Origin: Geosiphon pyriformis uo1
Lineage: Eukaryota > Fungi > Glomeromycota
Length of the DNA stretch: 63,876 nucleotides
Assembly: GCA_016748015.1 (NCBI GenBank)
Contig: JAAOMT010000009.1
Coordinates: 1,241,924 to 1,305,799, forward strand
Direction: 5' to 3'
The translations under genes and the position numbers were made by a program. The notes below the pieces were generated by a model, which was not told the DNA's origin, did no database searches, and saw only the letters and a program-made list of their open reading frames with translations. Positions 7,014 to 63,876 of this stretch are shown piece by piece; the first letter of the stretch is position 1; each line of letters opens with the position of its first letter.

Positions 7014-7116
7014 TTATTTCTTCTTTTTTAATATTAAGTTCTATTGAGATCTTCTAATTTTAATTTTCTATCTTTGAGTATTTCTTGAACTTCTTTTTCA
7101 AAAATTACTTGTGCTA

Positions 7117-10349: not shown

Positions 10350-10379
10350 TTTTTGTTATATTTTTGGGTTGAAATGTTT

Positions 10380-13300: not shown

Positions 13301-16300
13301 TTCATCAAGGAGAGTTTTTCCACAAGCCAAGCATGGCTCATTATTCCATTTTCTAATTTGTTTTGGTTTTCCAAAGCATTCAATGAGACATGGACAGCAA
13401 TAAAACTTAGTTGCTGTCTGGTATTTCTTGTCGTCACCACAGCATGTGCCCATTAATGACAATTTCTTGCCACAATCAATGCATACTAGCTTTGGGTGGC
13501 AATAGTTAAATGGTTGTGATGAAGTATATGTGTATGAGATATAAGTGGCAGTGGTGGTTGATATTGGTTCTTCTTCTTTCCTTTTTCCTTTTTCTTTTGT
13601 ATTTTCTTTTTACTCCCAACTTATTAGCTCTTCCTGGTCATTGTTGGTTCTTCAGATTTGATCAGCATTCCAGATAAGTTTTTCTTTTTGTTTTTTCTTT
13701 CTATTGTTATCTCAAAAGGATATTGGTAGTAACTTGTTGTGGTCTTCTTCAGCTTATAAAACTTGATAGACTTCTTGAATAGGGTTTTTTTTTTTCCTCG
13801 AACTCGATGAGTGGTGCTGGCAGGTTGGTGGTCTTGAAATAACCACACATGACAGGTACTTGCATATGTTAGTCATTCTGATTAAGCTGTAGTTTCTGCA
13901 TGTTTTAGTCGAGCATGGCATTTGTTTTGACTAACCAGTTATTACCAACTAATGCTTAGTATTGTGTGACTTCCATCACTAAAACTTTGATAGAGGTAAT
14001 AATACTATTTACTTCAAAGAGAAAATCATCAATCTTGCCAATAGGAGTTTTGGTCATCCCATCAGCCATTATTATTCTGGCATTGGCAGCACAATCAATT
14101 CAGCAACCTAATTGGTTCATGAGTTGTCATGTAATGATACTGTCAGTTAATTCACTGTTTAGGATCAGTTTAATGTGCTGTCCATTAACTTTAGCATCTG
14201 TATATATCACAGTAATGGGTTTTGATTCTAGGGTGGTTCTACTGAATAGTGGCATTTTAATTGGTTCTTTGAATTCAAAAAAGAAGATAGCAGTAAGGGA
14301 TTTGTCTTTAGTAATAGTTGCTGGTAGGATATTGTTGGTAAGTGACTGCTTCTGTTTGGTTTCCAAGTTGTGAAGTGTGGCATCTTCTGGAGTTACCAGA
14401 AGACTTAAATAGTTCTGAGAACTCAGATTTTGGGTGTACTCGGTTCCTAAACTCCACTGGCATAATCCTGATGACTGGTTTGAAGAGCTGAGAATTGGTT
14501 GGTGGACAACCATTGCTGATTGCCAGTTTTGGATGGTCTTTAATCTGGGATTTCCTGATGTTATCTGAGCTGGTGGTGTTAAAATTGGTTGGGATTGATA
14601 TATTGCTTGAGGCTGTGGTTGATAGATAGGTTGGGGTTGCAGTTAATAAATTACTGGTGTTGTCAGCTGATAAATTGGTGTTTGATAAATTGGCTGTTGC
14701 ATTATAAGTAGGTAATTTGGTTGATATAGTTCTGGGTTTGATTGATAATTTGGAGTTTGAAATCTGTAATCAGGGTTTCAATATTGATTTCCCAATTATT
14801 GGTTATTAGTCTTAATCTACAGTCAATTTTCAAATGTTCTTGTTTACTACAGTAGTGGCAAACATGTGTCTCCTGTTGCCACTGTTGATTGGTCAAAGAT
14901 GATAAATGCAATTGATTCTGAAAATGATTTGCATTTTTTTGATTATTGCATTATTGTGGAGATTGATAAACTGCCTAATTGTTAATTAAGTATCCTTCTA
15001 ATTTTTTGTCAATAGAATTACTGAATTGTTTTAGCTTAGAATCTAATTCAGATGATTTGTTTATCACTAAACTGACAGCTTGAGCATGGTTAGCTTCAAG
15101 TTTGGCAAATTCAAAATCCTTTGCATTGGTAACTGCATTTTGGAGAGTTTGTGGGTGCATTAGACATATGCATTGGAGGATGCTACTATGCAGTCCACAG
15201 ATGAACTGGTTTAGAATCTGTGGTGCTGTAAAATAGTTAGCTTGGATTGCTTGAATTTGGCACAAGTTTCTGTAAAAATGTCTCAAGTAAGTAGTAACTG
15301 CTTCAGTTTCTCTTTGTATGATTGTGGTGAAGGTGTTGGCTAGACAATTAATACTGTTATTATTACTGAAATATCTCAAGAATTTAACTTTAAATTCTTA
15401 GAATGTTTGAGGTTTGACAACTAAACTTTGATACTATGAGTTGGTGGTATTTTATAAGAAATAAAAGATGGCTTGAAATGTCCTGACATCATTCTATCTG
15501 TTGGCTGTGATGGCTTTTTCCACATTGTTTAGCCACACTTGTGTGTTGTCCTTTTTGTTCATGAATTTTTTAAGTTTTACTATAAGGATGTAGGCTATTG
15601 GATCTATGTTTGATTGGTGCAATAGTTGAAGGAATAGTGATTGAGGTAGTATTGGTGGTTGTTGAATTTGTTCAGCAATCAAATTAATTGGTTGCTGATT
15701 GATAACGATTTCTAAAGGTAAGTTTTCTTGATTAATTAACTCGGAGTTCGGATTATTCGGAATTTGCTGGGTTTGAATATTTGGGGTTTTAACTTCCAGA
15801 TTTTCTGCGATCAGATTTTGATAATTAAATTCTTAATCTTTTTTTCCTTTTCTTCTAATGCTATTATCTCTCAAGGACTTGCAGTTTCAAAATCTGGTTG
15901 AGGTGGCAGTGATCAGAATCCTGATGGCATTGGAAATCGCAATTTAAATCCTTTAAAATAATTGCCATAAGTTCTTAATAATTCTACTTTTTTTATTTAC
16001 TTTGAAATAGGAGTTATCTAAATGTTGATATTACGTTTGATGTGATGTTAATGATACTACTGAATGTGTAATGGTATGATGAATATAATGAGGATTTAAT
16101 TCTTTGTTTCTTCTATGTTGGTAATTGTATTCTTTTTGGTGTTACTGCTGGTGTTTGTAATTTTTCTTTACTCTTATCTGTGTAGGTAATGAGAAATTGT
16201 TGTTAAGTGTATTTTTCAATTTCTTGATTAATTTCTCTAATAATTGGTGCAAAACTGTAATTCTATAATAAGCTGATATATTGGATTAATTCTGTATAAA

Positions 16301-16533
16301 AATTTTCTCTTGCTGATTTAATGTCAATTGGTCTTCCTAGAAAATCTGTGATTCTCTCATTAACATAAAAGTTGAAGGCTGATTCTGTTGGATAATGGTT
16401 GTTGGTTAAGCCCAATTGTTGACTGTACTGTTGAAATAAGGATTTGGTGAATCCTAAATAGTTTGTTCCTATGATTTCTGATTCTGCTACTTTTGGATGA
16501 TTGTTGATGATGCTGGTTTTCTGTAGGATTATA
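10380..16533 (-). pseudogene. G1 Gag-PR-Cys-rich-dUTPase-RT-RNaseH polyprotein, many stops
   Basis: Knuckle CHYCSKQEHLKIDC (~14820-14862); PR LILNSE (~14150); dUTPase remnant (~12210-12620); RT VMPFGLMNAPTTFQ and FLGH; RH ending NANRLSQIRQI*. Confidence 0.9.
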
Positions 16534-16550
16534 CCTCACAGAGAGCACCA
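16534..16550 (-). promoter_or_regulatory. G1 primer-binding site TGGTGCTCTCTGTGAGG
   Basis: Lies 2 nt inside the 5' LTR; complementary to a tRNA 3' end CCTCAC-AGAGAGC-A-CCA. Confidence 0.85.
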
Positions 16551-16552
16551 AA

Positions 16553-17395
16553 TGTTACAAATGAATAATTGGGGTCTCAAGTCAAATCAAACCCATAACT
16601 TGGTGCTTAATGTCTTGCTTAATATCAGTTGTTAAAGTGTTATGGATCTGAGAGTATTATTATCTAAAAGTTTTTTGTGAAGTTCTTTGTATAATGGACA
16701 AAAATTCAATAATTGTTTTCAGTAGTCTCCTGGAATCACAATTCTGTTGAATTTTTTTCTTAGTATGGTGGCCAGTAATCCTCCTGATAAGCTATTTTCA
16801 AATCTATGAGTGTTCTACTCTTGTTTTATGGGTTTTTACCAGTCCCTATGATATCTGTATGTTAGCGCTTAATCTTTTAATTAATTAGTAAATAACAACA
16901 AAGAAAAAAAAATAAAAATAAAAGAAATAAAAAATAAAAAATAAGCCAAGACAATAATAGTTAGTATCGCGTCAATAGCCATGATCAAGAGCTATTGTTC
17001 CAGTATGATTAAGTATCAATTACTATCAACACTTCATGTTGATAGTAGAAAGTAGATTTGAGATAAAGAATAATTATTTATTAATATTTGTGAGTTGGAA
17101 GATTGCTTAGATCAAATCTAAACTGAGAGGTCTGTTTTTTTCTATTTCTAATACTATGACTATATATACATAATTGAGATTTCTCAATTCCTCAATTTTT
17201 TACACCAGAAATTCTGTAATTCCTTTAAAAGAAATCTTGGAATTCTGGAATCCTGCAATTTCTTGTACAAGAATCCTGAAATTTCTGGAATCCTGTAATT
17301 CTTTTGAAAAAAATTTTGGAATTTTACATTTACTATGGTTACTTCTGATTGGCTAATTTATGCTAATATATACTTCCTATATTCTATAAATAACA
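16553..17395 (-). repeat. G1 5' LTR
   Basis: Direct repeat of 6176-7013; CCAAT box, GAATTC-rich subrepeats and TATA-like tract. Confidence 0.93.
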
Positions 17396-19518: not shown

Positions 19519-19520
19519 AT

Positions 19521-24000: not shown

Positions 24001-26754
24001 TTTTAATAATTATAAAAACCAAAATTAAAGTTAAATATTGTTAAATATTATTTTAAAAACACAATTTTGGTCTTTTTTGGTTATATTGTTAACAAAAATA
24101 AAATAAAACTCAATTTTGAAAAAATCAATACTATATAAAACTTAAAAGTTCTCCAAAATATTATTAAACTAAAAAGATCTATTAAATTAGTCTTTTACTA
24201 TCAGAAATTTATCAAAAAATTTTCAGAAATTGCCAAACCACTCAACTATTTAACCAACAAAAAAGTTAAATATCATTAAATCTTTATCCAATAAAAGACT
24301 TTTAATATTTTAAAAAAAAACTAACAACAGTCTCAATTTTTGTATATTTTAATTTTAATAAATGATTCCAGTTAGTTACTGATGTTTCATACATAGTATT
24401 TGGTATTATTTTATTACAATTAAATAACAATAACAATAAATAAGTTATTGTTTATGTCAATAGAACTTTTAAATTCACAAAAATAAAATATAAATCTATT
24501 AAATTAGAAGCAGCAGCTATTATTTAGATTTTTAAATACTTTTAACAATATTTATAAGAAAAAAAAAGTTTAATATCATCACTAACAATAATGGTCTTAA
24601 ATGATTTAACAAAAAAAATTCAGAACTTAATACAAAACAATTTCAATAGACTGATTTTCTAACTAATTACAAATATATTGTTTATTACAAACCAAAAAAA
24701 TTACATACCAATATAGATAGTCTTTTAAAAATAAGGCAAGATTAAAATTAATACAACAACTTATCAATTTAACAATAACAATTAACAACCAATAAATTTT
24801 AAAAACTACAATATTAAAAACTATATGGAAACTTTTATTATGTAAAAAAATTGGTTTCTAAGCAAAAAACACCAATTATAACACTAATCAAAACAATATT
24901 TTTGTTATTACAACAAAATTTATTATCAAAATCGTAGAAAATCAACAGACCTATTTAGATTAGTACAAGAAAACAAAAAAAACTATCTTTTACAATATAT
25001 ACATAGACTTATTATCAGCATACTTAGAAAAAATAATACAATTCAAAGAATACTTGAACATTATTTTTGGTCTCATATGTAAAAAAATATTTAATAATAT
25101 ATAAAATTATGTAATAATTGTCAAAAAAGAGGAAAAACTTATTCACAAAATCTTTAAATTTAATTAAAGTTAAACAATTTTTCAATAGAATTGATATTAA
25201 TTTAGTTAAATTACTATTTATTACAACCCAAAAAAACTATTATATTGCAGTTATAGTAAATTATCTTACTAAATGATTTAAAACCAGAGTTATCCAAAAA
25301 ACAGATGCAAAATTAGTAGCAAATTTTATTTATAAAAACATTATCTGCAGATATAAATGTCTAATCAAACTTTTATTTAATCAAAAAACACATTTTGTAA
25401 ACAACTTAATACAAAAAATTTATAAATAATTTAACATTAAAAAACTTTTATTATTATTTTATTATCCATAAACAAATAGACTTGTAGGACAATTTAACTA
25501 AATACTATGTGAATTATTAGCCAAAATCTTAACCAATTTTGAGTAAAAATAAAATATTTTTATTTCATTAATATTACTAGTATATAAAACATTAAAACAA
25601 AATACAACAAAATACACACTATTTAATTTGATCTATAAAAAAACAGCAGTATTACCAATAAATTTTACCATAAAAACATATTTAATACAACTGATTACAG
25701 AAGAAAACTTCTCAAAAACACTCTAATAAAGAGCTTATATATTTTTTAGCATATTGAAAAGAAAATAACAAATTAGAACAACTTATATTAAATACTTTTA
25801 AGTACAACAAAAAAAACAGCATAATAACAAATTGGCATTTATTATTAACAAATTTAAAATTGAAAATAAAGTTTTTTTATACAAAACCAAGATTAAAAAA
25901 CAATAGAGTGAAAAATTTAACCATAAATAGGTAAACTATTCTATATTTATGAAGTTTTAAACAATAAATTATGTAAGTTAAAAAAAAACTACAGTTTTAA
26001 TAGTAAATAATTTTCAGAATTATTACTTTTATAAAAGAAATACAAAAAGTTATTTTAGAATTTAATTACCAGAATTTTTAAAGCAAGCTTTAAAAAAAAC
26101 TTATTGTTTACTCTTATAAATATTTCTTTAAATATTATAATACAACAAAAATTTCAACTGTATTTTAATAAAAACAGTAAATATATTTCTATTTATTAAT
26201 ATTTTTAAATTAAAAAAACACTGTACTAATAGAAACTAGAACTTAATACAACTAATTTTACTTTTGAAGCCATTCAAAAACAAATACACTACAAATACAA
26301 AACAGCAGCTGAATTAATAAATACATGTTATAAACTCTAAGTAGTTTTTAGACTTTATAACTTATTTAATACTTGCAAAAACGTCCTATAAAATCTAATA
26401 CTTTAATTAATAAAAATACAATATATTAACAAGCTTACAAAACTGAAATTTCAACAATTTTTAGACCAAATTACTTTGATAATACTGAATTACTATCTAG
26501 ATATTACAAATAGTACTTGGATTTTAACAGAATTCAGTCTTAAGAAAAAAATTATATTATTAGTAAAAATTTGAAACATAATTTAGCATAAAATTATTCT
26601 TATAATTTCTATTATTAATTAATATATATTATTATTTTAATTTATTACTTATTATTTTAGCTAATAGTTTAAATTACTATCTAATTAATATTTTAATTAA
26701 AATAATACATAAATTGTAATAATTAAATTATACAATACTTCAAACTCTGTAACA
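21010..26754 (+). mobile_element. G2: strongly eroded, 5'-truncated Ty3/gypsy element
   Basis: Remnants of PR (YLILDN), Cys-rich region, dUTPase (VIDTKYTK), RT (FNVMLFGL), RH ending KIRQD* at 24745, IN (IDINLVKLL..YLTK) and ORF3-like QYINKLTKLKFQQFLDQI; possible short 3' LTR ~26554-26754 ending TGTAACA. Confidence 0.8.
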
Positions 26755-26840: not shown

Positions 26841-27698
26841 TGTTACTCATAGAATATAAAACATATATTAGCATATAAATTAGCCAATCAGAAGTAGCCA
26901 TAGTAAATGTGGAATTCCAGGATTCTTCTCAAAAGAATTGTAGGATTCCAGGAATTTCAGAATTCTCATACAAAGAATTGCAGAATTGCAGAATTCCAGG
27001 ATTTCTCTCAAAGAAATTGCAGAATTCCAAAAATCCCAGAATTCCTGGTGTAAAGAATTAAGAAATTGAGGAATCTCAATTATGTATATATATCAGTAGT
27101 ATTAGAAGTAGAAAAAGATAGACCTTTCAGTTTAGATTTGATCTAAGCAATCTTCTATTCACAAATATCAATAAATAATTATTCACTATCTTAATCCATC
27201 CTCACTATCAACACTTTATGTTGATAGTAATTGATACTTAACACCACTAGAACAATAGCTTTTGATCATGGCTATTGATGGAATACTAATGTGCAAATTG
27301 CCTTGGCTTATTTTTTTTATTTTTTTTATTTTTTTTTATTTTCTTTGTTATTTCTTTGGTTTTACTAAACTTAATTAAAAGAATTCACATGCACAGATAC
27401 TGATGTCAGGATATAGTACTGGTAAAAAACCCAGAAATAAGAGTAAACACTTAGAATTGAGAATATCTTACCAGGAAGATTACCAGCTATCATGCTAAAA
27501 AAGAATTTGACAAAACTGGGATTTCAGGAAGCTACAAATAAAATAATTAATTAAATCTCTGTCTATTATACAGAAAACTCAATCACAAAATCTTCAAACA
27601 AACAACATCTTTAGATATTACTAACAATATTATATCAATTGAACACCAAGTTATGAATTTGTTATTTGCTTTGAGACTTCAAATAATCACCTGTAACA
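26841..27698 (+). repeat. G3 5' LTR
   Basis: TGTTAC...GTAACA; direct repeat of 30312-31153; homologous to the G1 and G4 LTRs. Confidence 0.93.
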
Positions 27699-27700
27699 TT

Positions 27701-27717
27701 TGGTGTTCTCTGTGAAA
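27701..27717 (+). promoter_or_regulatory. G3 PBS (TGGTGTTCTCTGTGAAA, eroded)
   Basis: Same position and near-identical sequence to the G1 PBS. Confidence 0.8.
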
Positions 27718-27718
27718 T

Positions 27719-28592
27719 ATAATCCTACAGAGAACCAGTACTAACAACAATTATCCAAAAGTGGCAGAATCAGAAATAATAGGAACAAATCATTTAAGAT
27801 TCACTAAATTCTTATTTCAACAATACAGCCAACAATTGGGCCTAACCAACAACCATTACCCAACAAAATCAGCTTTTAACTTTTATGTCAACAAAAAAAT
27901 CACATATTTTTTAGGAAGACCAGTTGACATTGAATTAACAAGAGAAAATTTTTATACAAAATTAATTCAACACACTAGCTTATCATGAAATTACAGTTTT
28001 GTGCCAATTATTAGAGAAATTAATCAAGAAATTCAAAAATACACTCAACAACAATTTCCCATTACCTATGCAAATAAGGGTAAAAAAAAGTTACAAACAC
28101 CAGCAGCAATACCAAAAAGAATACAATTACCAACATGGAAGAAACAAAGAATTGAATCTTTATTATATTCATCATACCATTACACACTCAAAAGTACCAT
28201 CAATATTACATTAGCAAACACACTCACATCAAATGTGACATCAATATTTGGACAGCTATCATTCCAAAGTAAACAGAAAAAAGTGAAATTATTAGGAACT
28301 TATGGCAATTACTTTGAAGAATTCAAATTACAATTACCAATGCCATCAAAATTCCAATCACCACTACCTTCACCAGATTTTAAAACTGCAAGTTCTTAGA
28401 AGATAACAGCATCAGAAAAAGAAAAAAAAGAGAATTGGGAATTTAATTATCAAAACCTGATTCCAGAAAACCCAGAAATTGAAAACCTGAACAATCCAAA
28501 CTCCAATAATATTAATCAGCAAAATCAGAACAATCAAAACCCCAATTTAATTAATCAACTAAACTTACTTCCAAAAATCATCATTGATCAGC
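27719..28592 (+). pseudogene. G3 gag N-terminal extension
   Basis: VAESEIIGTNHL...SAFNFYVN...KGKKKLQTPA; homologous to G1 ~15690-16530. Confidence 0.75.
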
Positions 28593-29607
28593 CACTCATT
28601 GAGACCAATTAAAGTGAAACAACCATTCAATTACATTAGAATTAACTTAGTCAAACCATTAACAATAACCAGCAGAAACAACAGATATATTACAATAGCC
28701 ATAGATTATCTTACAAAATGGCCAGAAGCAAAAGCTATTCAAAGAATAGATGCAGAATCCATTGCCAAATTCATTCATCAAGATTTGATCTGTTAACATG
28801 GATGTCCAAAAGAACTATTATCAGATCAAAAAACTCACTTTGTGAATAGAATATTGGCAGAATTAAAGTCAAAGATTTGAGATAAAAAGACCATTATCAT
28901 CACTATATCATCTACAAACAAATGGGTTAGTTAAAAAATTTAACAGAACATTGTGAAAAGCCATTGTCAAAATCAGCCAAAAAAACCAGAACGAATGAGA
29001 TTTGATTATACCATCAGTTCTATTTGCTTATCAGACAATAAAACAAGACACTACACAAACAACATCATTTGAATTAGTATATGGTAGAATAGCAACATTA
29101 CCAGTTAAGATAGAAGTCAAGACATATCCAATAGAACCAATAACAGAAGAGAATTTTCAAAAAACATTGTTAAGAAAAACATATGACTTAATGGAAACAC
29201 TAGAAAACACACAGTGAAGAACAGCTGATAACATCTAAAAATCACAAAAAAAACAAAAAAAAAGACATAATAACTAACTACCAGAGAAACCAGTTGAATT
29301 CAAGATTGAAAACAAAGTACTTTTATATCATACTAAAATGGAAAAACAATAGAGTGGAAAATTTGACCCCAAATGGGACAAACCATTTCACATAGAAAAA
29401 ATTCTTGGAAATGGAGCTTATAAATTAAAGTTGAACAACAAAATCTTAACCAAAGCAGCACATGGTAATCAACTGAAACAATATTACTATATAGTATCAT
29501 TATCTACCAATAATATTTCACAATTAGGAGTACAGAGAATACTAATTAAACCAGATGAGATTCTACGAGATTTAGAACCAATTATAATCATTAAACCAAA
29601 CATGTAA
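28593..29607 (+). pseudogene. G3 integrase core and C-terminus
   Basis: LRPIKVKQPFNYIRINLV..DYLTKWPEAKA; KWDKPFHIEKILGNGAYKLKL. Confidence 0.9.
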
Positions 29608-29667
29608 AATTGAACAACCAAAAAAGTATATAAAGACATGGTATATGTAACAAAAAACAGCAGAAAA

Positions 29668-30291
29668 ATGGAAATTACTGATGGCATTCACTTACTAGCA
29701 CAACAATTTTTTCAACTAATCCAACAACAAGAGATGGAAATTACAATTAACCAACAAACTATCAAATACACAAACACTAGAAAAAAACTATGAGATAAAA
29801 TACAAAGAAAAACAGAAAACACTGTGAACAAAATAATCACAAAAGTGAAATTGACAATAGAAACACAACCAAAAGTTATCCAATATCAAAAGTTGACTAT
29901 AAAAACTTGGAATTGGTGAATACAACAATTTCCAAGAAACTTTTGTTACTTTTATTTGAGACAACACTTGAATATTCAGGGCTTGTATATGGATAAAACA
30001 AAATAATTATTTGATACAACAATACTGCAACAACTGGAACAATTTGTAAGGAAGAACAATTTAACCATACAAGCAAGAGCCATTTATTAGCTACACACCA
30101 GATTTCAAGATCAACCAGAAATCTTATTCAATCCAGAAATGAACTCCATTATCATTAACCAAATGGAAAAAATAATCAATGCTCAATTTGAAAAATTACA
30201 GAACAAGATAGCACAAATAATTTTTAAAAAAAAAGTTCAAGAAATACTCAAAGATAGAGAATTAGAATTAAAAGATCTTAATGGAGCTTAA
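29668..30291 (+). pseudogene. G3 ORF3, about 205 aa accessory protein of unknown function
   Basis: ATG in an AAAAATG context; MEITDGIHLLAQQ...; ends GA* just before the PPT; homologues in G1, G2, G4 and G5. Confidence 0.8.
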
Positions 30292-30295
30292 TATT

Positions 30296-30308
30296 AAAGA
30301 GGAGAGAA
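30296..30308 (+). promoter_or_regulatory. G3 polypurine tract AAAGAGGAGAGAA
   Basis: Purine run 3 nt before the 3' LTR. Confidence 0.85.
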
Positions 30309-30311
30309 TAA

Positions 30312-31153
30312 TATTACTCATAGAATATAGGATGTATATTAGCATATAAATTAGCCAATCAGAAGTAGCCATAGTAAATGTAAAATTCCAGAATTCCTCT
30401 TAAAGAAATTGCAGGATTCCAGAAATTTCAGGATTCTTGTACAAAGAATCACAGGATTCCAGAATTCCAGAATTCTTCTCAAAGAAATTGCAGAATTTCA
30501 GGAATCTCAGAATTTTTAGTGTGAAGAATTAAGAAATTGAAGAATCTCAATTATGTATATATATTAGTAACATTAGAAGTAAAAAAAGATATATCTCTCA
30601 GTTTAGATTTAATCTAAGCAATCTTCCATTTACAAATATCAATAAATAATTATTCACTATCTTAATCTATCCTTACTATCAATACTTTATGTTGATAATA
30701 ATTGATACTTAACACTACTGAAACAATAGCTCTTGATTATAACTATTGATAGGATACTAATATGCAAATTGCCTTGGCTTATTTTTTTTATTTTTTTTTA
30801 TTTTTTTTGTTATTTCTTTGGTTTTACTAAACTTGATTAAAAAGATTAGAGATACTAATGTCAGGATATAGTACTAGTAAAAGACCTAGGAATAAGAGTA
30901 GACACTTAAAATTGAGAATATCTTACCAGGAAGATTACTGGCTATCATGCTAAGAAAGAAATTAACAAAACTGGGGTTTTGGAAAGCTACAGATAAAACA
31001 ATCAATTAAATCTCTATCTATTATACAAAAAACTCAACCACAAAACCTTCAAATAAACAATATCTTTAGATATTACCAATAGCATTATATCAATTAAGTA
31101 TCAAGTTATGGGTTTGTTATTTGCTTTAAAACCCTAAATAATCACCTGTAACA
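30312..31153 (+). repeat. G3 3' LTR
   Basis: Direct repeat of the 5' LTR; terminal TG eroded to TA. Confidence 0.93.
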
Positions 31154-33650: not shown

Positions 33651-33676
33651 TTGATTTAAAAAACTATTAATTCTTA

Positions 33677-52687: not shown

Positions 52688-53515
52688 TATTACGAGTGAT
52701 TTCTTGAAGTCTCAAATCAAATAACAAACCCATAACTTGGTACTAAAAGTTATTTGCGTTGATGTTAATAATCTGAAAGTTTTGTATCTGAAGGTTTCAG
52801 TTTGAGTTCTTTGTATAATGAACAGAGATTCAATAATTGGTTTATCTGTAGCTTCTTAGAATTGCAATTCTGTCAATTCTTCTCTCAGCATGATGGCCAG
52901 CAATCCTCTGATAAGTATTCCATATCTTTTGTACATGTCCTACCCTCTTGCAGAGATCTTTTATCAGGCAATCCTTGACATTAGTAATCTAGCACTTTAT
53001 TCAACCAATTAGTGCACAACAATGAAACCAAAAATAAAAATAAAGAAAAGAAATAAAAAAAATAATAAATAAGCCAAGGCGGTTTTACAAGTTAGTATCC
53101 TGTCAATAGCCATAATCAAGAGCTATTGTTCCAATATGTTTAAGTATCAATTATTATCAATATAAAGTGTTAATAGTAGAATTAGGTTTGAGATACCAAA
53201 TAGTTATTTATTATGTTTGGAAGATTGTCTAGATGAAATCTATACTGGGAGGTCTGTCTTTTCAGCTTTTCATACTACTGTTATATATACATAATTGAGA
53301 TTCCTCAATTTCTCAATTCTTCACAACAGGAATTCTGCAATTCCTTTGAGAGGCATCTTGGAATTCTGGAATCTTGCGATTTCTCATAAGAATTCTGTAA
53401 TTTCTGGAATCCTGCAATTCCTAAAAGGAATCCTAGAATTCCACATTTACTATGTTTATTTCTGATTGGCTAATAACTATGCTAATATATATTCCCTATA
53501 ATTCTATGAGTAACA
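52688..53515 (-). repeat. G4 3' LTR
   Basis: Homologous to the G1 and G3 LTRs; ends TAACA at 53515. Confidence 0.88.
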
Positions 53516-54208: not shown

Positions 54209-55595
54209 TGAATTAATTTAACATGTTGTTGTTAATAATAATGATTGGTTCTAAATCTCGTGGAATCTCATCTGGTTGAATTAGTATCTTCTGTACTCCC
54301 AATTGTGGAATATTACTGATGGATGGTGGTGTGATGTTGTGGTATGGTTTCAGTTAATCTCTATGTGCTGCTTTGGTTAAGATTTTGTTGTTTAGTTTTA
54401 ATTTGTAAGCTCCATTTCCTAGAATTTCTTCTATGTGAAATGATCCATCCCATTTGGGGTCGAATTTTCCACTCCATTGTTTTTCCGCTTTGGTACGATA
54501 TAAGAGTACTTTGTTTCCAATCTTGAATTCAACTGGTTTGTCTGGTAGTTGATTATTGTGTCTTTTTTTTTGTTTCTCTTGTGACTTTTAAATGTTGTCA
54601 GCTGTTCTTTTTTGTTTGCTTTCCAATGTTTCTATTAAGTCATATGTTCTTTTTAACAATGTTTCCTGAAAATTTTCTTCTGTTATTGGTTCAGTTGGAT
54701 ATGTTTTAACCTCTATCTCCACTGGTAATATTGCTGTTCTACCATATACCAATTCAAATGGTGTTGCTTGTGTGGTGTTTTGCTTCATTGTCTGATAAGC
54801 AAATAATACTGATAATATGAACAAATCTCATTTGTCCTGGTTTTTTTGACTGAGTTTTGCTATTGCTTTACACAATGTTCTATTAAATCTTTCAACTAAT
54901 CCATTGGTTTGTGGATAGTATGGTGATGATAGTGGTCTTTTAATTCCGAATTTTTGGCTTAGTTTTGCTAATGTTCTATTCACAAAATGGGTTTCTTGGT
55001 CTGATAATAGTTCTTTTGGACATTCATGTCAACAAATCAGATCTTGATAAATAAATTCAGCAACAGATTCTGCATCTGCTCTTTGAATTGCTTTTGTTTC
55101 TGGCTATTTAATGAGATAGTCCATGGCTACTGCAATATATCTGTTGTCTCTGCTGGTAATTGTCAATGGTTTAACTAAGTCAATTCCAATGTAGTTGAAT
55201 GGTTGTCCCACTTTGATTGGTCTTAATAGTTCATTGGATCTTGTTCCTCCTCTTCTTTGACATGCATCACAATTTTGAATGTATTGCATGATGTCTGAAT
55301 ACATTGATGGCCAATAATATCTTTTTCTGGTTCTTTCTATGGTAGCTTCTTTGTGAAAATGTCCTGTTGTTAGATCGGAGTGTATGTTAAATAACACTCT
55401 TTCTTTTTCTGGCTCTGTAATTACTCTGATTGGTTTATCTGGATCTTTTCTATTCTTTTAATAAAATATATTTTGGCAAGTGATAAAGTATTTTGATTGT
55501 TGTTTGATATTATTGTATTCTGATTGAGATAATTTCTCCTTGAATTGTTGAGTCTTTATATAATGTTTGAGTTGTTGATATTTTTCTGGATTCAT
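54209..55595 (-). pseudogene. G4 integrase with its own ATG (MNPEKYQQLKHY)
   Basis: HSDLTTGHF..CDACQR, IGIDLV, YHPQTNGLVERFN. Confidence 0.9.
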
Positions 55596-55654
55596 TTTTT
55601 GTTATATTTTCGTTGGATTGGTTTGGTTTTGTTATATTTTTGGGTTGAAATGTT

Positions 55655-56634
55655 CTAGATTTGTTTTCTCCATGACAAACTGTTAGCATTTCCATTGTCT
55701 TTTCCCTTTTTATAGTGTATAGTATAAATATATGGTGAGAGTGCCATTTTCTATCTTGATTGTCTGCCATCTTCAAATTCTTGTTTCTGGAGTGATGTCA
55801 ATCCTTTGTGATCTGTATACACCTCAAACTTCTGGCTCAAGTATTTTTTCTATTTCTTGACTGCCCAATAGATTGCTAAATGTTCTAATTCTGGTGTCCC
55901 ATAGTTCTTTTCAGCTGGGGTTAAACCTCGGCTGGCATATACTACTGGATGTTCTCTTCTATCTGGTCCTCTCTGAGATAGTACTGCTCCCAATGCTTGA
56001 CCTGATGCATTGGTAGTAATGATGAATGGTTTACTATAATATGGATATATTAGTACTGGAGCTTGAATGAGCTTTTTTCTTAGGGTATCAAAAGCTTCTT
56101 GTTGAGTTTCAGTCCATTCATATTTCACATTCTTGGTTTGAAGATGATTGAATGGCTGAGCTATCTTTGAAAAGTTCTTAATAAAGTGTCAATAATAGCT
56201 AGCAAATCCCAAGAATGATTGTAGTTTTATCACATTGGTTGGTACTGAAAAGTTTTTTATTATCTCTATTTTTTCTGGATCTGTTTTAATGCCATCTTTA
56301 CTGACTATATGTCCCAAAAATTTCAGTTTTGTCTTGCTAAAAAAACATTTGGTGGCATTCAACTTTAGTCTTACTTGTTGTAGTCTTTCGAACACTTGTT
56401 GGAGATAATGGAGATGATCATCAAATGTTCTTGAGAACACATTGGTGTCATCTAGATATACTACTACTGATTTCTACAATAAGCTGGTGTAAATAATTTT
56501 TATTAATCACTGAAAAGTGGCTGGTGTATTGGTTAAGCTGAATGACATTACTTCGAATTCGAAATTCTCTTCCCTAGTGGTGAATGCTGTCTTTTTTTTG
56601 TCTGCTGGATTCATAGCTACTTGCCAGTAACCAC
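55655..56634 (-). pseudogene. G4 RT (part) and RNase H
   Basis: YLDD, FLGH, TNASGQALGAVLSQ; ends LSWRKQI* at 55655. Confidence 0.9.
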
Positions 56635-57289
56635 TGTTACAGGATGGTTTTCTTGTTATATTTAATTGCTGATATCCCGCTTTAATTGCAATCAGTCTTT
56701 CGTGAGTTCCTCAATTCTATTTGTGTGATAATGTTACTGTTACACTGAAGGCTTTCTTTTTACTGTTGCGATGTAAGTTATTCTTTAATTCTTGATTGTT
56801 GTGTGTGTTTATGTACTCCTTCTCAGAGGCTGAACTGAAATCTACCCACTGTCTGGGGTCTTCTCTGAGGCNNNNNNNNNNNNNNNNNNNNNNNNNNNNN
56901 NNNNNNNNNNNNNNNNNNNNNNNNNNNNNNNNNNNNNNNNNNNNNNNNNNNNNNNNNNNNNNNNNNNNNNNNNNNNNNNNNNNNNNNNNNNNNNNNNNNN
57001 NNNNNNNNNNNNNNNNNNNNNNNNNNNNNNNNNNNNNNNNNNNNNNNNNNNNNNNNNNNNNNNNNNNNNNNNNNNNNNNNNNNNNNNNNNNNNNNNNNNN
57101 NNNNNNNNNNNNNNNNNNNNNNNNNNNNNNNNNNNNNNNNNNNNNNNNNNNNNNNNNNNNNNNNNNNNNNNNNNNNNNNNNNNNNNNNNNNNNNNNNNNN
57201 NNNNNNNNNNNNNNNNNNNNNNNNNNNNNNNNNNNNNNNNNNNNNNNNNNNNNNNNNNNNNNNNNNNNNNNNNNNNNNNNNNNNNNNNN

Positions 57290-57761
57290 ATCTAATACTG
57301 TGTTATTAATTTGTTGTTGTAATTCTTGAAATTGCGAGTTGGTAAGTCGTCCAATACTGTTGGTTGTTATTATGTTCATGGTTGGGTCCAACAATAANNN
57401 NNNNNNNNNNNNNNNNNNNNNNNNNNNNNNNNNNNNNNNNNNNNNNNNNNNNNNNNNNNNNNNNNNNNNNNNNNNNNNNNNNNNNNNNNNNNNNNNNNNN
57501 NNNNNNNNNNNNNNTTATTAATGTATTGCCCAATGCTATCTCTAATTTTTCAATAACTTTGCTAATAAATTTGTTGTTATATTTGGCAATATTATATGGT
57601 TCGAAATTATGTTCTTTTCTTGTTTTTGGATTTTCTATTGTTCTTTTTATGTATGTTATTTTGGAGCTATTAACTGTGATTTCTAGATCGGATTTTAATT
57701 GTTGTAAGCTTTCAACTAATTGTTGAGTTATATTGTTGATGTTTTCTGGAATAAGTATCAT
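57290..57761 (-). CDS. G5 ORF3 (gapped)
   Basis: AAAACA-ATG; IPENINNITQQLVESLQQ..LEITVN and LLDPTMNIITTNSIGRLTNSQFQELQQQI align with G3 ORF3. Confidence 0.7.
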
Positions 57762-57845: not shown

Positions 57846-59239
57846 TTATCTTTTCGAATAATGTTCAATTAAAACTATTGATTCTAAATCTCGTGGAATT
57901 TGTTCTGGTAGAATTAAAGGTAATTGTGTTCCAATTCTGGGTGTTTTTGCTGTTATTACTGGTTTACTGTAATAGAATTTCAGCCGGTTACCATGTGCTG
58001 CTTTTCTTAATATCTAGTCTTAGCTTGTATGCTCCATTTCCAAGTATTTCGTGAATATAAAATGGTCCATCCCACTTGTGATCAAATTTTCCACTCCACT
58101 GTTTTTCCATTTTTGTATGATACAACAATACTTTATCTCCAATTTTGTAGCTAATTATATTATCTGGTAACTGGTTATCATGTCTCACTTTTTGTTGTTC
58201 TTGTGATTGTTCAATATTTTGTGCTGCTTTTCTTCTTTTGTTTTCTAAAGTTTCCATTAATTCGTATGTTCTTCTAAGTAGTGTTTCCTGGAATGTTGCT
58301 TCCGTGATAGTGTCACTCGGATAAGTTGGAATAGTAAGTTCAACAGGTAATGTGGCTTTTCTTCCATAAACTAGTTCNNNNNNNNNNNNNNNNNNNNNNN
58401 NNNNNNNNNNNNNNNNNNNNNNNNNNNNNNNNNNNNNNNNNNNNNNNNNNNNNNNNNNNNNNNNNNNNNNNNNNNNNNNNNNNNNNNNNNNNNNNNNNNN
58501 NNNNNNNNNNNNNNNNNNNNNNNNNNNNNNNNNNNNNNNNNNNNNNNNNNNNNNNNNNNNNNNNNNNNNNNNNNNNNNNNNNNNNNNNNNNNNNNNNNNN
58601 NNNNNNNNNNNNNNNNNNNNNNNNNNNNNNNNNNNNNNNNNNNNNNNNNNNNNNNNNNNNNNNNNNNCCATGTCGGCAAATTAAGTCTTCATGTACGAAT
58701 TGAGCTACGGAAATAGCATCAGCTGTTTTAATAGCTCTAGCTTCTGGCCATTTGGTGAGATAGTCCATGGCTACTGCAATATAACGGTTGTTTCTTGTTG
58801 TTATTGGTAAGAGTCCAACTAAATCAATTCCGATTCTGTCAAATGGCTGTCCAACTTTTATTGGTCTTAATAATTCCATTGTTTTTGCTCCTCCTCTTTG
58901 TTGGCATGAGTCACAATTTCTTATGTATTGGATTATGTCTGAGCTCATTTTTGGCCAATAGTAACGGCTAGTTGCACGTTGGATGGTTGCTGTTTTTCCA
59001 AAGTGGCCTGAATGAATATCTGAGTGCATGTTAAATAAGATAGTTTCTTTTTCATCCGTGGTTATAACTCTTAATGGATTATCTGGATTTTGTCGATTCC
59101 GGTAATAAAGTATGTGATTTTGGATAAAATAGTGTTTTGCTAATTTTTGGAGCTTAATTAGCTCTTTTACTGGCATTTCTTCATTTATTTGTAGTGTTTC
59201 CAAGTATTGGCCGAGGTTTTTGTAAAGGTGGTTGTTCAT
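57846..59239 (-). pseudogene. G5 stand-alone integrase (small frameshifting deletion near 58010, plus an N gap)
   Basis: MNNHLYK..; HSDIHSGHFG..CDSCQ; IGIDLVG; WDGPFYIHEILGNGAYKL. Confidence 0.9.
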
Positions 59240-59268
59240 TGTTGTTGTGGCAGGTGGGTTGGTGATTT

Positions 59269-62200
59269 TTATGTGTGTCTCATTCTTGACAAACAGTCGG
59301 CATTAGCATTTTTGGTACCTTCTTTGTATTTGATAATATAATCATATGGTGCTAACATTTGTGACCATCTGGCGTATTTTCTTTTTAGCGCTTTCTTGTT
59401 CTTTAACCAGACCAGACCTCTATGATCTGTCGTAATCTCAAAGGGTTGGTACCGTAAATATGTGTCAAAGTGAACACAACTCCAGACTACTGCTAAGCAT
59501 TCAAGTTCATGTGCTGCGTAGTTTTGTTCTGCCGTACTGAGACTTCTGCTGGCATAAGCGATTACACGTTCTCTTCCATTATCATCTTTTTGTGACAGAA
59601 TGGCTCCAAGTCCAGTTCCAGAGGCATCTGTGGCCAAAATGAATTTCTTGTTGAAATTCGGATAGATCATTATTGGTGATTCAATGAGCTTTTGTCTAAG
59701 GTACTCAAAAGCTTTTTGTTGTGTTTTAGTCCATTCAAACTTCACATTTTTAGATAGTAGATAATTAAGGGGTTTGGCGATGTTTGAAAAGTTTTCTACA
59801 AAGCGGCGGTAGTAAGATGCGAGTCCTAAAAAGCTTCTAACTTCTGAGACATTTCGAGGTACTGGAAAATTTTTCACTTTGTCTATTTTTGATGGATCTG
59901 GTTTTATTCCATCTTTTCCAACTACGTGTCCTAAAAATGCTAGCTCATTTTTCCCAAAGAAACATTTTTCTAGATTTAGTTTAAGTCCAGCGTGTCTCAA
60001 TCTCTCAAAAACTTGTTGTAAATGTTGGAGATGATCCATGAATTTTGACGAGAAAACATTTGTATCATCCAAGTAGACAACAACGGATTGCCACAGGATT
60101 CCGGAGTAAATTACATCTATTAGTCTTTGGAATGTCGCGAGAGCGTTTGTTAATCCAAATGGCATTACATTGAACTCATAATTGCCATTTTGTGTTGTGA
60201 ATGCTGTTTTATGCCTGTCCTTTGGGTCCATTTCCACTTGCCAGTACCTACTGGTCAAGTCCAGTGTAGAAAACCATTTTGCTCCTCCAAAAACGTCGAA
60301 GATTTCGTCAATTAATGGTATTGGGTATGAGTCTTTGGTTGTTTTGCTGTTTAGTTTGCGATAGTTGACGCAAAATCTAATTTTTCCGTTCTTTTTCCTT
60401 ACTAAAACAACTGGTGAGGACCATGGGCTCATTGATGGTTGTATTATTCCTTTTTCCAACATGCTTTGGACTTCTTCTCTGATAAAATTATGCTCTATTG
60501 GTGGGACACAGTAAGCGCGTTGTTTTTTAGGTCTGGCATCTCCAGTGGGGATTTGGTGTTGAACCAAGTTGGTTCTTCCAAATTCGCCATTTCTTGAAAA
60601 TATATCAGAGTATTTTAAAATTAATGCTTTTAATTGTTGCTGTTGGTCGGGATCCATTGTTCCAATGTTTAATTTGGCCAATTCTTCTGGCGTAAATTGA
60701 TAGCATTCTACTGGTTGTTGCCAATTTATTGAAGTGAGTTCACAGTAGAGGGCGATTTCTGGGAAATTTAGAATTTCTTGTGGTGTTGACGCGTTTTCTA
60801 GCTCCGTTCCGAGGTATCCAATGATGGTATCTTCCNNNNNNNNNNNNNNNNNNNNATTTCCAGTGTATCCGGAGTCAATTACTCCTCCTTGAACGCTTAT
60901 TCCTTTTTTCGCGAGGCTTGATTGCGACGCCATTTGAACCATTATTCCTGGCGGAATTTCAACCGCTAATTTTAGGTCGATTTTGGTGATGCTCCTGGGT
61001 GGTAACGTTGTGGATTGGTCTTCCGGATAACGTAGATCGAATCCGGCGTTGGTTGGATGGGCTCTTTCGGGTATTATTCCTAAGTGCCCGTTGTCGAAGT
61101 ATCGGATGTCGGTCACCTGTTCTAGGTCAGTATAGGCTACAAATTTTTCTGACTCAGGACTGTCAGGTGAGTCTTGTTGATTTATTGATTGATTTTGAGA
61201 CTGCTGATTCTCAATTTCCATTTTTCTTTCTAAGTCCCTTTCGTCTTGACACTCTTCACAGCACTGACTTTGGCACGGGATGAGACAGTTTTCGCAGAGG
61301 TAAGTGTTGATTTGGGCGAGGTATTGTTCTTGCTCTTGTCGAGTGGGGCATAGTTGTTGGTAGTAGTCCTGGAATTCGTCCACTGGGTCGAACATGTTGT
61401 AGCTGGTGACTTCGTCGGCTACTTCGGCTGACTCTTTCCAATGTCGTATTTCTTCGGCGGTTCCTCCTCTTACTTTGGCTTGTGCAGTGTTGTACAACTC
61501 GTCCTCGTCATGTGGGTAGTGCTGTAGTTTTTTTAACGCTCTGTTGAATGCTGCTTCGAACGGCGTTCCTCCTCTTACCCAGTCACAGATGAGGATCGTG
61601 TATTGGCAAGTTGCGTCACATGTTCCTCCTCTGCCTGGTAAGTCATTCCAGTCGCACCCTTTTGGTAACGGTTCTCCACAAGCGAGGCACGGTTCCTCGT
61701 CCCATTTTCCGTGTCTTTCTGGGTAACCGTATTTTTCTTTGTTACAATGGTTACAATAATAGTGGGTGGGGTTTCTTGGGTCTTCGTCCGGTGCGCTGCA
61801 CGCAGTCATAGACGAGAGTTTCTTCTTGCAAACCGAGCATTCTAGCTTTGGTCTGCGTCGCTGGTGGTTTCTTCGTGAACTTACCTGGTTCCATTCGGAT
61901 CTTTCTTCGCTGGTCCATGTTGGTATGGCTGGTAGTCCTGTTTTTTGGTCATCAGCCCAAGAGAGCTGATAGGTTTTGATGGCTGGTAGTGCTGGATTTT
62001 CCTCAAATTCGAAGGTAGGTCTTTGGTTGGCGCTGGGTTTTTGGAAGTGGCCACAGGTGGCTGGAATTTTGGCCTGGTGGCCATTATAATTGATCAGAAG
62101 CTCTTGGGTGGTCCAGTCTAGGGTGGTGTTGGCTTTTGTTAACCAGTCATTCCCTACTAACGCTTGATATTGTGTAGCGTCCATTACTAATACTTTTGTA

Positions 62201-63876
62201 GGTATTACTATGCTGTTAATTTCGAAAGGGAATGAATCGATTTCGCCATAAGGCAGCTTTGTACTTCCATCGGCTGTTATGATTTGGGACATCACGGCAC
62301 GATCAACTTTGAAACCCAGTTGGTTTACTAGTTGAAGCATTACGATGCTTCCAGCAGATCCGCTGTCTAAGATAAGTTTGATTGGGGTATTGTTTACAGT
62401 GGCTTCCATATACATAGCAGTGATTGGGCGTTTTTCGTTCAATGCTGCTCCACTGAACATAGCCTTGTTTTCCTCTAATTCAAAAGGAAAAATAGCTGCG
62501 AGGCTGCTATCTTCGGTGGCAACTGCTGGTGGTATTGTCTGGCTCAATTTGGAGGAATTCTTGGTTCTGTTTATGTTTCTACCGTCATTGTTTCCGATGA
62601 TCAGGTTTTCCAGTATATTAAGGTAAGTTTGTTGATAATTTTGGTAGTTTGGATTGGTTTGCTGATTGGTTCTGGCGCAGTTTGGATTCCTCTGGACCAA
62701 TGCGTTCTGGTTCCACATGGGCTGATTTTGGGCCTCGGGACGCCAATTCGGGTTGGCTATCATGGGCTGTTGCTGGTAAGCTCCTTGATTTTGATACGTG
62801 GTGGGATATTGGCATGGTATTGGCGTGTACTGGTTTCTGGGCATTTGGGGTGGCGTGTAGTAATTATTTTCGCGTGCTTCCTGCATCATTCGCGTTCGAC
62901 ATTGACTAATCAAATGTCCTACGCGTTTGCAAAAATGGCAGGCGTGTGTTTCTGTTCTGAATTCCTGGTGCGACGAGCGATTATTTCGACTGTCGCTGAC
63001 TTCCTGGCTGCGTCTTTGGGGTGGTTGGTATGTATTTTTTCTCGGATCCAGGATGAGGTAACTTTCTATTTTCTTAGAGAGTTCCTCCCCTAATTGCGTT
63101 ACTCTTTTCTCTAATGTTTCTGTCTTATTTTTCTCCATTACCATGTTAACCATTTGACTATGGTTAGCTTTTTTCTCAGCCGATTCAAGGGCTCTGGCGA
63201 GCGTAACGGCTTCTGGTAAGGAATTAGGGTGGGCAGGGCGTACTCTTCCTAAAATGCTGCTTTTTAATCCTCTAATAAACTGATTTAAAACCTGAGGATC
63301 AGTGTAGTATCCTTGTTCAATCGCTTCAATCTGATGGCGAATTTGATTGAATCGAGCAAGGTATTGGGTGACAGTTTCACCGGTATTTTGCTTGATAGTA
63401 TTGAATTCGTTCTGTAGTTGGATTACGGCGTTTGGGTCGCTAAAATACTCCAGGAGTGCATTTTTAAATTCAGCGAAGCTCGTGGGTTTTGTTTCCAGGC
63501 TTTGATACCACGAGTCGGCTGTGCCTTTCAGGAAGAAAAGTAATGTTTGAATTGCTCTTTGGTCATTCCAGTTATTTGCCTGGATGGCTTTTTGTGCTTC
63601 TCTGAGCCATGTGTGCATGTCCGTTTCTTCTTCCTCTTCTGAGAAATCTGTTAGTCTTGCAATGTATGGTGTGGTCATTTCGTTGCCGTTTTCTGCTGGT
63701 GGGTTTATTGGTCTAAGAGGAGGTGGGATGATATTTCCTTGAGCGTTCCTAAAGGTGGCTTCCCTTATATCCGGTTCTTTCTCTTGATCATGAGTTTCTT
63801 GGTTTCTGGACTGGCTGCTTGTTCCAGTGACTGGTCTTGTGATTGTTTTTTCGCTGGTCTCTTTTTCGGATTCTGA
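59269..63876 (-). CDS. G5 Gag-PR-Cys-rich-dUTPase-RT-RNaseH polyprotein, open to the window edge
   Basis: CA-like domain; CHFCKRVGHLISQC; LILDSGS; AGFDL, SSLA and GVIDSGYTG; YLDD; TDASG..ELECLAV..TDH..NADCLSR. Frame also open for 66 codons upstream of 63678. Continuity across the N gap at 60836-60855 is unproven. Confidence 0.9.
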   Translation of the reverse strand, partial: SESEKETSEKTITRPVTGTSSQSRNQETHDQEKEPDIREATFRNAQGNIIPPPLRPINPPAENGNEMTTPYIARLTDFSEEEEETDMHTWLREAQKAIQANNWNDQRAIQTLLFFLKGTADSWYQSLETKPTSFAEFKNALLEYFSDPNAVIQLQNEFNTIKQNTGETVTQYLARFNQIRHQIEAIEQGYYTDPQVLNQFIRGLKSSILGRVRPAHPNSLPEAVTLARALESAEKKANHSQMVNMVMEKNKTETLEKRVTQLGEELSKKIESYLILDPRKNTYQPPQRRSQEVSDSRNNRSSHQEFRTETHACHFCKRVGHLISQCRTRMMQEARENNYYTPPQMPRNQYTPIPCQYPTTYQNQGAYQQQPMIANPNWRPEAQNQPMWNQNALVQRNPNCARTNQQTNPNYQNYQQTYLNILENLIIGNNDGRNINRTKNSSKLSQTIPPAVATEDSSLAAIFPFELEENKAMFSGAALNEKRPITAMYMEATVNNTPIKLILDSGSAGSIVMLQLVNQLGFKVDRAVMSQIITADGSTKLPYGEIDSFPFEINSIVIPTKVLVMDATQYQALVGNDWLTKANTTLDWTTQELLINYNGHQAKIPATCGHFQKPSANQRPTFEFEENPALPAIKTYQLSWADDQKTGLPAIPTWTSEERSEWNQVSSRRNHQRRRPKLECSVCKKKLSSMTACSAPDEDPRNPTHYYCNHCNKEKYGYPERHGKWDEEPCLACGEPLPKGCDWNDLPGRGGTCDATCQYTILICDWVRGGTPFEAAFNRALKKLQHYPHDEDELYNTAQAKVRGGTAEEIRHWKESAEVADEVTSYNMFDPVDEFQDYYQQLCPTRQEQEQYLAQINTYLCENCLIPCQSQCCEECQDERDLERKMEIENQQSQNQSINQQDSPDSPESEKFVAYTDLEQVTDIRYFDNGHLGIIPERAHPTNAGFDLRYPEDQSTTLPPRSITKIDLKLAVEIPPGIMVQMASQSSLAKKGISVQGGVIDSGYTGNXXXXXXXEDTIIGYLGTELENASTPQEILNFPEIALYCELTSINWQQPVECYQFTPEELAKLNIGTMDPDQQQQLKALILKYSDIFSRNGEFGRTNLVQHQIPTGDARPKKQRAYCVPPIEHNFIREEVQSMLEKGIIQPSMSPWSSPVVLVRKKNGKIRFCVNYRKLNSKTTKDSYPIPLIDEIFDVFGGAKWFSTLDLTSRYWQVEMDPKDRHKTAFTTQNGNYEFNVMPFGLTNALATFQRLIDVIYSGILWQSVVVYLDDTNVFSSKFMDHLQHLQQVFERLRHAGLKLNLEKCFFGKNELAFLGHVVGKDGIKPDPSKIDKVKNFPVPRNVSEVRSFLGLASYYRRFVENFSNIAKPLNYLLSKNVKFEWTKTQQKAFEYLRQKLIESPIMIYPNFNKKFILATDASGTGLGAILSQKDDNGRERVIAYASRSLSTAEQNYAAHELECLAVVWSCVHFDTYLRYQPFEITTDHRGLVWLKNKKALKRKYARWSQMLAPYDYIIKYKEGTKNANADCLSRMRHT

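Follow-up and report, generated by a model that had tools for sequence, protein, structure and literature searches.

We analysed a 63,876-nt stretch of the Geosiphon pyriformis uo1 genome (GCA_016748015.1, contig JAAOMT010000009.1, positions 1,241,924-1,305,799 of the forward strand; hereafter the window) and found that its Ty3/gypsy-type long terminal repeat (LTR) retrotransposons encode integrase as a separate gene behind the RNase H region. We conclude that elements with this stand-alone integrase gene are a genuine variant of the Ty3/gypsy type, present throughout a lineage, and that the literature searched apparently holds no description of them. According to the textbook view, LTR retroelements and retroviruses set the amount of integrase, and bring it into particles, by fusing it to Gag through Pol; a large, diverse lineage that dropped Pol-linked integrase must use other translation and packaging routes. 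The reading that we favour, at a probability of about 0.45, is that integrase is translated from the full-length RNA by restart after termination, and different branches may use different routes.

A separate integrase frame in four elements of the window

The element designated G5 has an upstream frame in which Gag, protease, dUTPase, reverse transcriptase (RT) and RNase H were identified with Pfam. This frame ends in a TAA (59271-59269), from which a 29-nt spacer leads to the integrase ATG at 59239; a further open reading frame (ORF), ORF3, follows integrase. The parts of G5, and the corresponding junctions of G4, G1 and G2, are:

59269..63876, - strand: G5 polyprotein frame (Gag-protease-dUTPase-RT-RNase H), 1535 codons, open at the window edge, ending LSRMRHT-TAA
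59240..59268, - strand: G5 spacer between RNase H and integrase, 29 nt, 90% A+C, without AG or ATG, unpaired in the predicted fold
57846..59239, - strand: G5 integrase gene with its own ATG, an H2C2 zinc finger, a partly unreadable core and an SH3/GPY-F-like end
57290..57761, - strand: G5 ORF3, partly unreadable, its C-terminal end a weak match to the ORF3 profile (E=0.013)
56738..56871, - strand: readable end of the probable G5 3' LTR, ending TGTAACA
55593..55657, - strand: G4 junction, TAG at 55657-55655, 59-nt spacer, ATG at 55595
10347..10382, - strand: G1 junction, TAA at 10382-10380, 30-nt spacer, ATA where G4 has ATG
24743..24794, + strand: G2 junction, TAA at 24743-24745, 46-nt spacer, ATA; a third family, strongly decayed

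An earlier note on this DNA had described these four junctions, and we reproduced its positions and lengths (29, 59, 30 and 46 nt) exactly. Mapping by tblastn placed integrase after RNase H in G1, G2 and G4 as well. All four spacers are 74-90% A+C, contain zero AG and zero ATG, and are predicted to fold as single strands. The note assigned the elements to four families; there are three instead, since G1 and G4 belong together, being 77% identical in RNase H and 81% in integrase (remaining pairs, 52-69%) and sharing LTRs with a further copy, G3. The G4 spacer is the G1 spacer with a 29-nt addition.

The split layout is inherited

A split of this kind could be put down to decay or assembly error in dead copies. 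G1, G2 and G4 are riddled with stops, ATA stands for ATG in G1 and G2, and the integrase of the G5 copy has a frameshift near its C terminus. We therefore turned to relatives. The N-terminus of G5 integrase, searched against proteins of 334-2000 aa (a search in which long proteins can be crowded out), had 96 protein matches, and RT was also present in four of them, two distant (30-31%) and two eukaryotic gene models. When the G5 integrase was aligned with the 52 of these 96 matches that are of roughly 410-440 aa, the starting methionine (Met1) was invariant across all 53 sequences, which are 41-55% identical to that of G5; this argues against decay.

A metagenome scan with the 53-row integrase alignment gave at least 130 confirmed loci, the best 80 of which were analysed. 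Of these 80, 46 have an RNase H match ahead of integrase on the same strand; integrase is split off in 37 of the 46 and fused in nine (L069 and L077 were scored as fused by hand, from the shared frame); the other 34 were not scorable in this way. Every split locus is at least 38% identical to G5 integrase, and every fused locus at most 36.5%. We tabulated the junctions of 35 of the 37 split loci, leaving out L013, a near copy of L010, and L030, which has an inserted ORF. Tabulating stop position, spacer length modulo 3 and ATG, as the note had proposed, gave all three frames (10/13/12). The claim that the spacers fall in all three frames leaned, within the window, on the decayed G1, G2 and G4, and it is the relatives that bear it out. 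Close relatives differ by a single base in spacer length (63 and 64 nt in L031 and L037; 75 and 76 nt in L011 and L023). With G5 added, both frames are unbroken, yet split, in 22 of 36 junctions. The distance from stop to AUG is -14 to +5 nt in 13 junctions, 24-93 nt in 16 and more than 150 nt in seven, the extremes being -14 and 727 nt. Across the G5 spacer itself, run X1, with thousands of contigs over the junction region, listed zero indels and zero joints.

Because so many junctions are unbroken in both frames, the spacers occupy all three frames, close relatives differ by one base and the distances vary freely, decay, readthrough and a fixed frameshift are excluded as general explanations of the split. 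We conclude that the layout is inherited and is not decay; decay or assembly error in dead copies is an extremely improbable account of it. The design proposed from the window, in which integrase is separate, starts at its own ATG and precedes a conserved ORF3, is thus clade-wide, as seen in the relatives' junctions, the Met1 alignment and an ORF3 profile (see below).

Could a minor spliced or frameshifted Pol-integrase fusion keep packaging via the polyprotein? Four NCBI gene models from Cetraspora and Rhizophagus clarus (P0006, P0074, P0196 and P0199) do unite RNase H and integrase. However, the ADxLSR end of RNase H is missing from all four, as is the integrase start, and their joins lie at three different places. 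No conserved intron or frameshift joining RNase H to integrase was found in the 36 junctions: the commonest GT donor occurs in at most nine and the commonest YAG acceptor in at most eight, so that no splice site is conserved among them. The one-base spacer differences between close relatives also speak against a fusion, and no slippery or UGA-CUA site was seen at the RNase H-integrase junction. Judging from the sequences, the joins in the four models are probably no more than predicted introns, and we regard a minor spliced product as improbable. The statement that the G5 spacer lacks an AG acceptor is true, and extends to G1, G2 and G4, but an acceptor may lie further upstream in the RNase H code.

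Reads over the G5 junction included, in run X2 (labelled 'DNA?'), three GT...AG joints on the + strand in two contigs (59254-59410, 59445-59598 and 59701-59791, within 59195-59823). The joints span RNase H and the spacer, one having its donor within the spacer. They likely represent spliced multi-exon antisense RNA from a related copy and are irrelevant to how integrase is produced. Sense-strand joints were not listed in the runs over the G5 junction, which is uninformative either way.

Integrase descends with its element

For 31 split elements, distances in RT-RNase H and integrase trees correlate (Mantel r=0.83, with 0 of 2000 permutations as high), and we infer that integrase was inherited with the element; the congruence check suggested by the note thus came out in agreement. 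We built an 85-row integrase tree by a quick method with a midpoint root, leaving out 23 near-duplicates, fragments, chimeric models and the decayed G2. One 66-row branch (Shimodaira-Hasegawa-like approximate likelihood-ratio test (SH-aLRT) support 99) contains all 50 split rows together with the long-branched fused L062, L074 and P0190, and the split/fused history on this tree requires at least three changes. Because these fused rows sit within the branch, a single origin of the split is only plausible from the sequences. An RT-RNase H FastTree gave a similar, weakly resolved picture, with L060 among the fused rows. The trees hold plant and animal gypsy-type gene models; they are free of named reference elements and of Ginger1 sequences, and have no outgroup.

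Species to which stand-alone integrases could be assigned include Rhizophagus irregularis, R. clarus and G. pyriformis, the last through a gene model, P0055, that shows 98% identity over the first 46% of the G5 query. A search covering proteins of 246-784 aa found a further set in Rhizopus delemar, R. arrhizus and R. microsporus, with a Met start in the same register in 64 of 70 proteins of at least 425 aa. These proteins probably belong among the relatives of the split-integrase elements. Three protein queries found no relatives among viral contigs. Mucorales-type stand-alone integrases (P0299-P0306, P0322 and P0328-P0337) end in C-terminal tails of 190-270 aa, and these tails show no match with the ORF3 profile.

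A covarying hairpin precedes the integrase AUG in one branch

A conserved motif of ~45 nt lies just 5' of the integrase AUG in 16 of the 80 loci (for example L010:4464-4503), once per locus and on the sense strand. It is predicted to form a hairpin in which a short outer stem is followed by an 11-nt bulge, purine-rich and on the 5' side, and then by a 6-bp stem and an apex, CA-NNG-UG, in which an A is bulged; the apical motif is 13-42 nt ahead of the AUG. Over 15 related sequences, from which the structure was itself derived, 94.4% of cells are paired, and both sides vary in 9 of the 12 pairs. None of 500 shuffles was as good, and slid controls reached at most 52% paired cells and at most five both-side pairs. 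The carriers form one branch (SH-aLRT 97) and their Pol, where seen, continues for ~300 residues beyond RNase H.

Rfam gave no match on 14 retrotransposon loci at E<=1, and the hairpin pattern had no match in viral contigs. Its 45 prokaryotic matches, all in Acidobacteria, we attribute to chance: four that were scored with the model failed (best E=3), two had no Rfam match and one that was read looked coding-like. The hairpin may look like T-loops, the iron-responsive element or hepadnaviral epsilon; we claim no such likeness.

Such an element might recruit ribosomes without upstream translation, as might an unstructured A/C-rich leader, possibly after RNA cleavage. The strong covariation of the hairpin and its single, sense-strand occurrence per locus throughout one branch are what favour internal initiation of this kind. 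However, the hairpin model gives no match in the window, nor in any of the remaining 64 retrotransposon loci, single-sequence folding z-scores are weak (-0.4 to -2.7), and the structure was derived from the very sequences scored. The hairpin could as well be a protein-binding or packaging signal, or an aid to reinitiation as in SART1. We consider internal initiation distinctly unlikely.

The 727-nt spacer of L044 (6706-7432) has a repeated short motif, and a short motif ahead of the AUG is common to L044, L051 and L064; the latter is possibly a second structured element.

Translation of integrase

Under restart after termination, the reading that we favour, ribosomes would finish Gag-Pol on the full-length RNA and then restart at the integrase AUG. 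In the window families, the post-termination small subunit would cross the short, unstructured, AUG-free A/C-rich spacer to the first AUG; other branches would use overlapping stop and start codons (TAATG, ATGA) or the dedicated RNA hairpin ahead of the AUG. The RNase H stop and integrase start do overlap as TAATG in L003 and L040 and as ATGA in L009 and L055. Extra ORFs are joined to integrase by ATGA overlaps in L030 and, twice in succession, in L034, and ORF3 overlaps integrase in L018 and L033. Of 17 spacers of 24-163 nt, 12 are ATG-free, and the 17 together hold 7 ATGs against 12.4 expected from dinucleotide shuffles (p=0.026), a modest effect in related sequences. Coupled reinitiation at UAAUG or AUGA has precedents in caliciviruses, influenza B, the fungal viruses CHV1 and HvV190S and the retrotransposon SART1, according to the available text of PMC10275272.

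The main rival is that integrase, with ORF3, comes from a dedicated subgenomic mRNA; this would arise either at an internal promoter, situated in the RNase H code or the spacer, or through splicing from the 5' leader. Retroviral env and foamy-virus pol are precedents for a separate mRNA made by splicing. Spacers of up to 727 nt with many ATGs are not crossable by simple scanning, the start context is good (a purine at -3 in 28 of 35 loci), ORF3 often begins 30-316 nt past integrase and once 1358 nt past it, and a separate mRNA would set stoichiometry independently of the gag/pol frameshift. On the other hand, no acceptor position is conserved, AG is absent from all four window spacers, and the start/stop overlaps in several branches and the ATGA-chained ORFs would be unneeded. 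In G5 and in 10 of 18 short-junction loci, the 60 nt ahead of the integrase ATG also contain additional ATGs; a capped subgenomic RNA with its 5' end upstream of these decoys is disfavoured, because it would meet them first. We regard a subgenomic mRNA as unlikely, though a stronger contender than internal initiation.

Several observations weigh against restart after termination. Reinitiation of the type that depends on a TURBS (termination upstream ribosome-binding site) needs both codons to lie no more than ~20 nt apart and declines beyond ~30 nt (PMC10275272, available text), and the window spacers, at 29-59 nt, exceed that ~20-nt reach. Seven of the 36 junctions are longer than 150 nt, with up to 12 intervening ATGs (L044, at 727 nt, L049 and L045). 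The depletion of ATGs in spacers would equally fit the 5' leader of a separate mRNA, and a subgenomic mRNA or internal entry fits the long spacers and the hairpin better than restart does. The fused L062, L074 and P0190 lie inside the split clade. Finally, the gag/pol junctions of many relatives contain, by eye, TTTAAAC, TTTAAAA or UGA-CUA, which we take to be slippery and readthrough-type sites, respectively, with nothing alike at the RNase H-integrase junction; where Pol depends on frameshifting or readthrough, restart would presumably yield very little integrase.

Untethered from Gag, integrase would enter particles via the genomic RNA that encoded it, or via RT or Gag, and ORF3 would possibly help it in.

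ORF3, inserted ORFs and Pol extensions

The ORF3 family, mostly ~120-280 aa, follows integrase. A profile built from 19 members finds ORF3 in 22 loci, 19 of them its training set, and detects remnants in G1 (E=1e-5), G3 and G4 and, more weakly, in G2 and G5. The AlphaFold2 model is all-helical (mean predicted local distance difference test score (pLDDT) 93). The 19 members had no Pfam match below E=0.01; for ORF3, Atlas gave no usable match, Foldseek returned no match at E<=0.001 in PDB or BFVD, and the best VIA-align Z was 4.7, blanks that do not prove a new fold. Several short-junction branches have no ORF3-like ORF within the contig. That ORF3 is an RNA-binding or adaptor protein is a guess.

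The note had proposed a tricistronic design. This fits G5, but many relatives split gag from pol too, and some have added ORFs between RNase H and integrase (L030:181-972, L034:3-1237 and L041:2-637). The inserted ORF of L030 has a weak thymidylate-kinase-like (P-loop kinase-like) match and that of L034 an Mrr_cat_2 restriction-endonuclease-like domain, above cut-off. In L010, L029 and L044, Pol extends ~290-590 residues past RNase H, with acidic and Cys/His-rich parts and no Pfam match above cut-off. Gag follows integrase or ORF3 on the same contig in L005, L015, L021, L046 and L055, as tandem copies or LTR-collapsed assemblies.

Comparison with known systems

The elements share with canonical Ty3/gypsy (Metaviridae) TG...CA LTRs, a target duplication, a tract like a primer-binding site (PBS) and the order Gag-protease-(dUTPase)-RT-RNase H-integrase. 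The Ty3_capsid and RT_RNaseH families match G5, and among solved structures the integrase profile matches Ty3 Gag-Pol best (E=2e-50). In canonical elements integrase is within Pol, whereas here it lies outside, both in the window and in 37 of the 46 loci that could be scored, and a conserved, apparently non-env-like ORF3 is present. In env-bearing (errantivirus-like) gypsy elements ORF3 is a membrane fusion glycoprotein, whereas the ORF3 found here is small and all-helical in the model. Fungal surveys, in the text available, describe one or two ORFs with integrase within Pol (PMC3248453, PMC2864245), and dUTPase-bearing fungal gypsy elements are known (PosPlaTy3-5; PMC2864245, available part). 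General family scans listed no chromodomain, which chromoviruses carry at the integrase C terminus, for the stand-alone integrases, no dedicated search having been made.

Ginger1 DNA transposons and YPYY-type gypsy integrases (Gypsy-1-I_RO, DGLT-A; PMC2836005, in the part available) likewise have a stand-alone gypsy-type integrase of ~400 aa, a GPY/F end and 4-bp duplications, and their N-terminal aromatic/proline (YPYY) motif before the H2C2 finger resembles, by eye, a Y-P-F/Y-Y pattern in our integrases. In contrast to Ginger1, integrase here lies inside an LTR element behind RT-RNase H and descends with it, and terminal inverted repeats and an OTU/Ulp1 tail were not seen. Ginger1 itself, a lone transposase with terminal inverted repeats and no RT, was therefore rejected as an identity for these LTR-flanked, RT-linked elements. 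We also rejected Gmr1-like elements, with integrase between protease and RT (PMC2582038, available text), where here it follows RNase H; Troyka, with a 3-bp duplication and CG...CG ends (PMC12440569, available text), against 4-bp duplications and TG...CA ends here; and, as far as the sources available go, Kuafuorterviruses, which are found in animals, and the single-ORF DGLT-A.

Termination-reinitiation systems (SART1, CHV1, HvV190S, caliciviruses and influenza B) share an out-of-frame ORF with its AUG on or near the stop, as in 13 of our 36 junctions. They are non-LTR elements or RNA viruses, whereas the majority of our junctions, the four of the window among them, are at least 24 nt long, with no shared upstream signal identified. 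Foamy viruses and caulimoviruses make replication enzymes apart from Gag, and this entails another packaging route. Foamy viruses keep integrase inside Pol and caulimoviruses have none; here, integrase alone is split off. Cauliflower mosaic virus encodes a reinitiation factor (PMC10275272, available text).

The literature searched, which did not extend to Repbase, GyDB, supplements or subscription journals, yielded no account of an LTR retrotransposon with integrase in an ORF of its own. None appears in the available text of PMC12440569, PMC11673190, PMC2836005, PMC3248453, PMC2864245, PMC5751038, PMC11952901, PMC5911963, PMC5006619, PMC2582038, PMC10275272, PMC5009743 or the bioRxiv papers 10.1101/2021.03.30.436303 and 10.64898/2026.05.21.726589. 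A precedent may exist in the Repbase entry Gypsy-1_RO or in the supplement table of PMC2864245.

A broader proposal, tentative and in our view rather unlikely, is that these elements form an undescribed major Mucoromycota lineage of polycistronic LTR retrotransposons, with a free-standing integrase under its own new RNA element (the bulged hairpin, without an Rfam match), Gag-free particle loading via RNA binding or a new-fold ORF3 adaptor, and an RNase H-integrase slot that accepts cargo genes. If this is true, the ATG-started YPYY-type integrase would be the missing step from gypsy retrotransposons to Ginger1 DNA transposons. The elements provide many natural variants of a eukaryotic polycistronic junction, and with them come a structured RNA and a family of small proteins that are both new. 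The layout also matters for annotation, as gene finders label these integrases 'transposases' or bridge the gap by invented introns; LTR elements make up as much as 41% of the genome in G. pyriformis (PMC11952901, available text).

Other features of the window

The remaining retrotransposon features are:

52690..53515, - strand: G4 3' LTR, of the family shared with G1 and G3
6176..17395, - strand: G1, a full-length decayed element with an ORF3 remnant at 8548-8372
26143..26559, + strand: G2 ORF3 remnant (profile E=0.003)
26841..31153, + strand: G3, an internally deleted copy of the G1/G4 family with two LTRs and part of integrase and ORF3

The G4 RT starts just past the probable G5 3' LTR, which makes it likely that G5 is nested in G4. 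The G1 LTRs (TGTTA...TAACA) are 83% alike and flanked by a 4-bp target duplication, ACAT, with a PBS-like TGG tract after the 5' LTR; G3 has the same LTR ends and the 4-bp duplication TTGT. Between protease and dUTPase, the G5 polyprotein has a Cys-rich insert (61102-62076, - strand), present in G1 too and without a Pfam match. The interval 35761-42145 (+ strand) holds the decayed remains of a LINE-like, non-LTR element that has endonuclease and RNase H domains. Long inverted repeats of 81-99% identity (1-4445, 19198-19635, 33551-35771 and 42388-43085) are probably the ends of nested DNA transposons or of split insertions.

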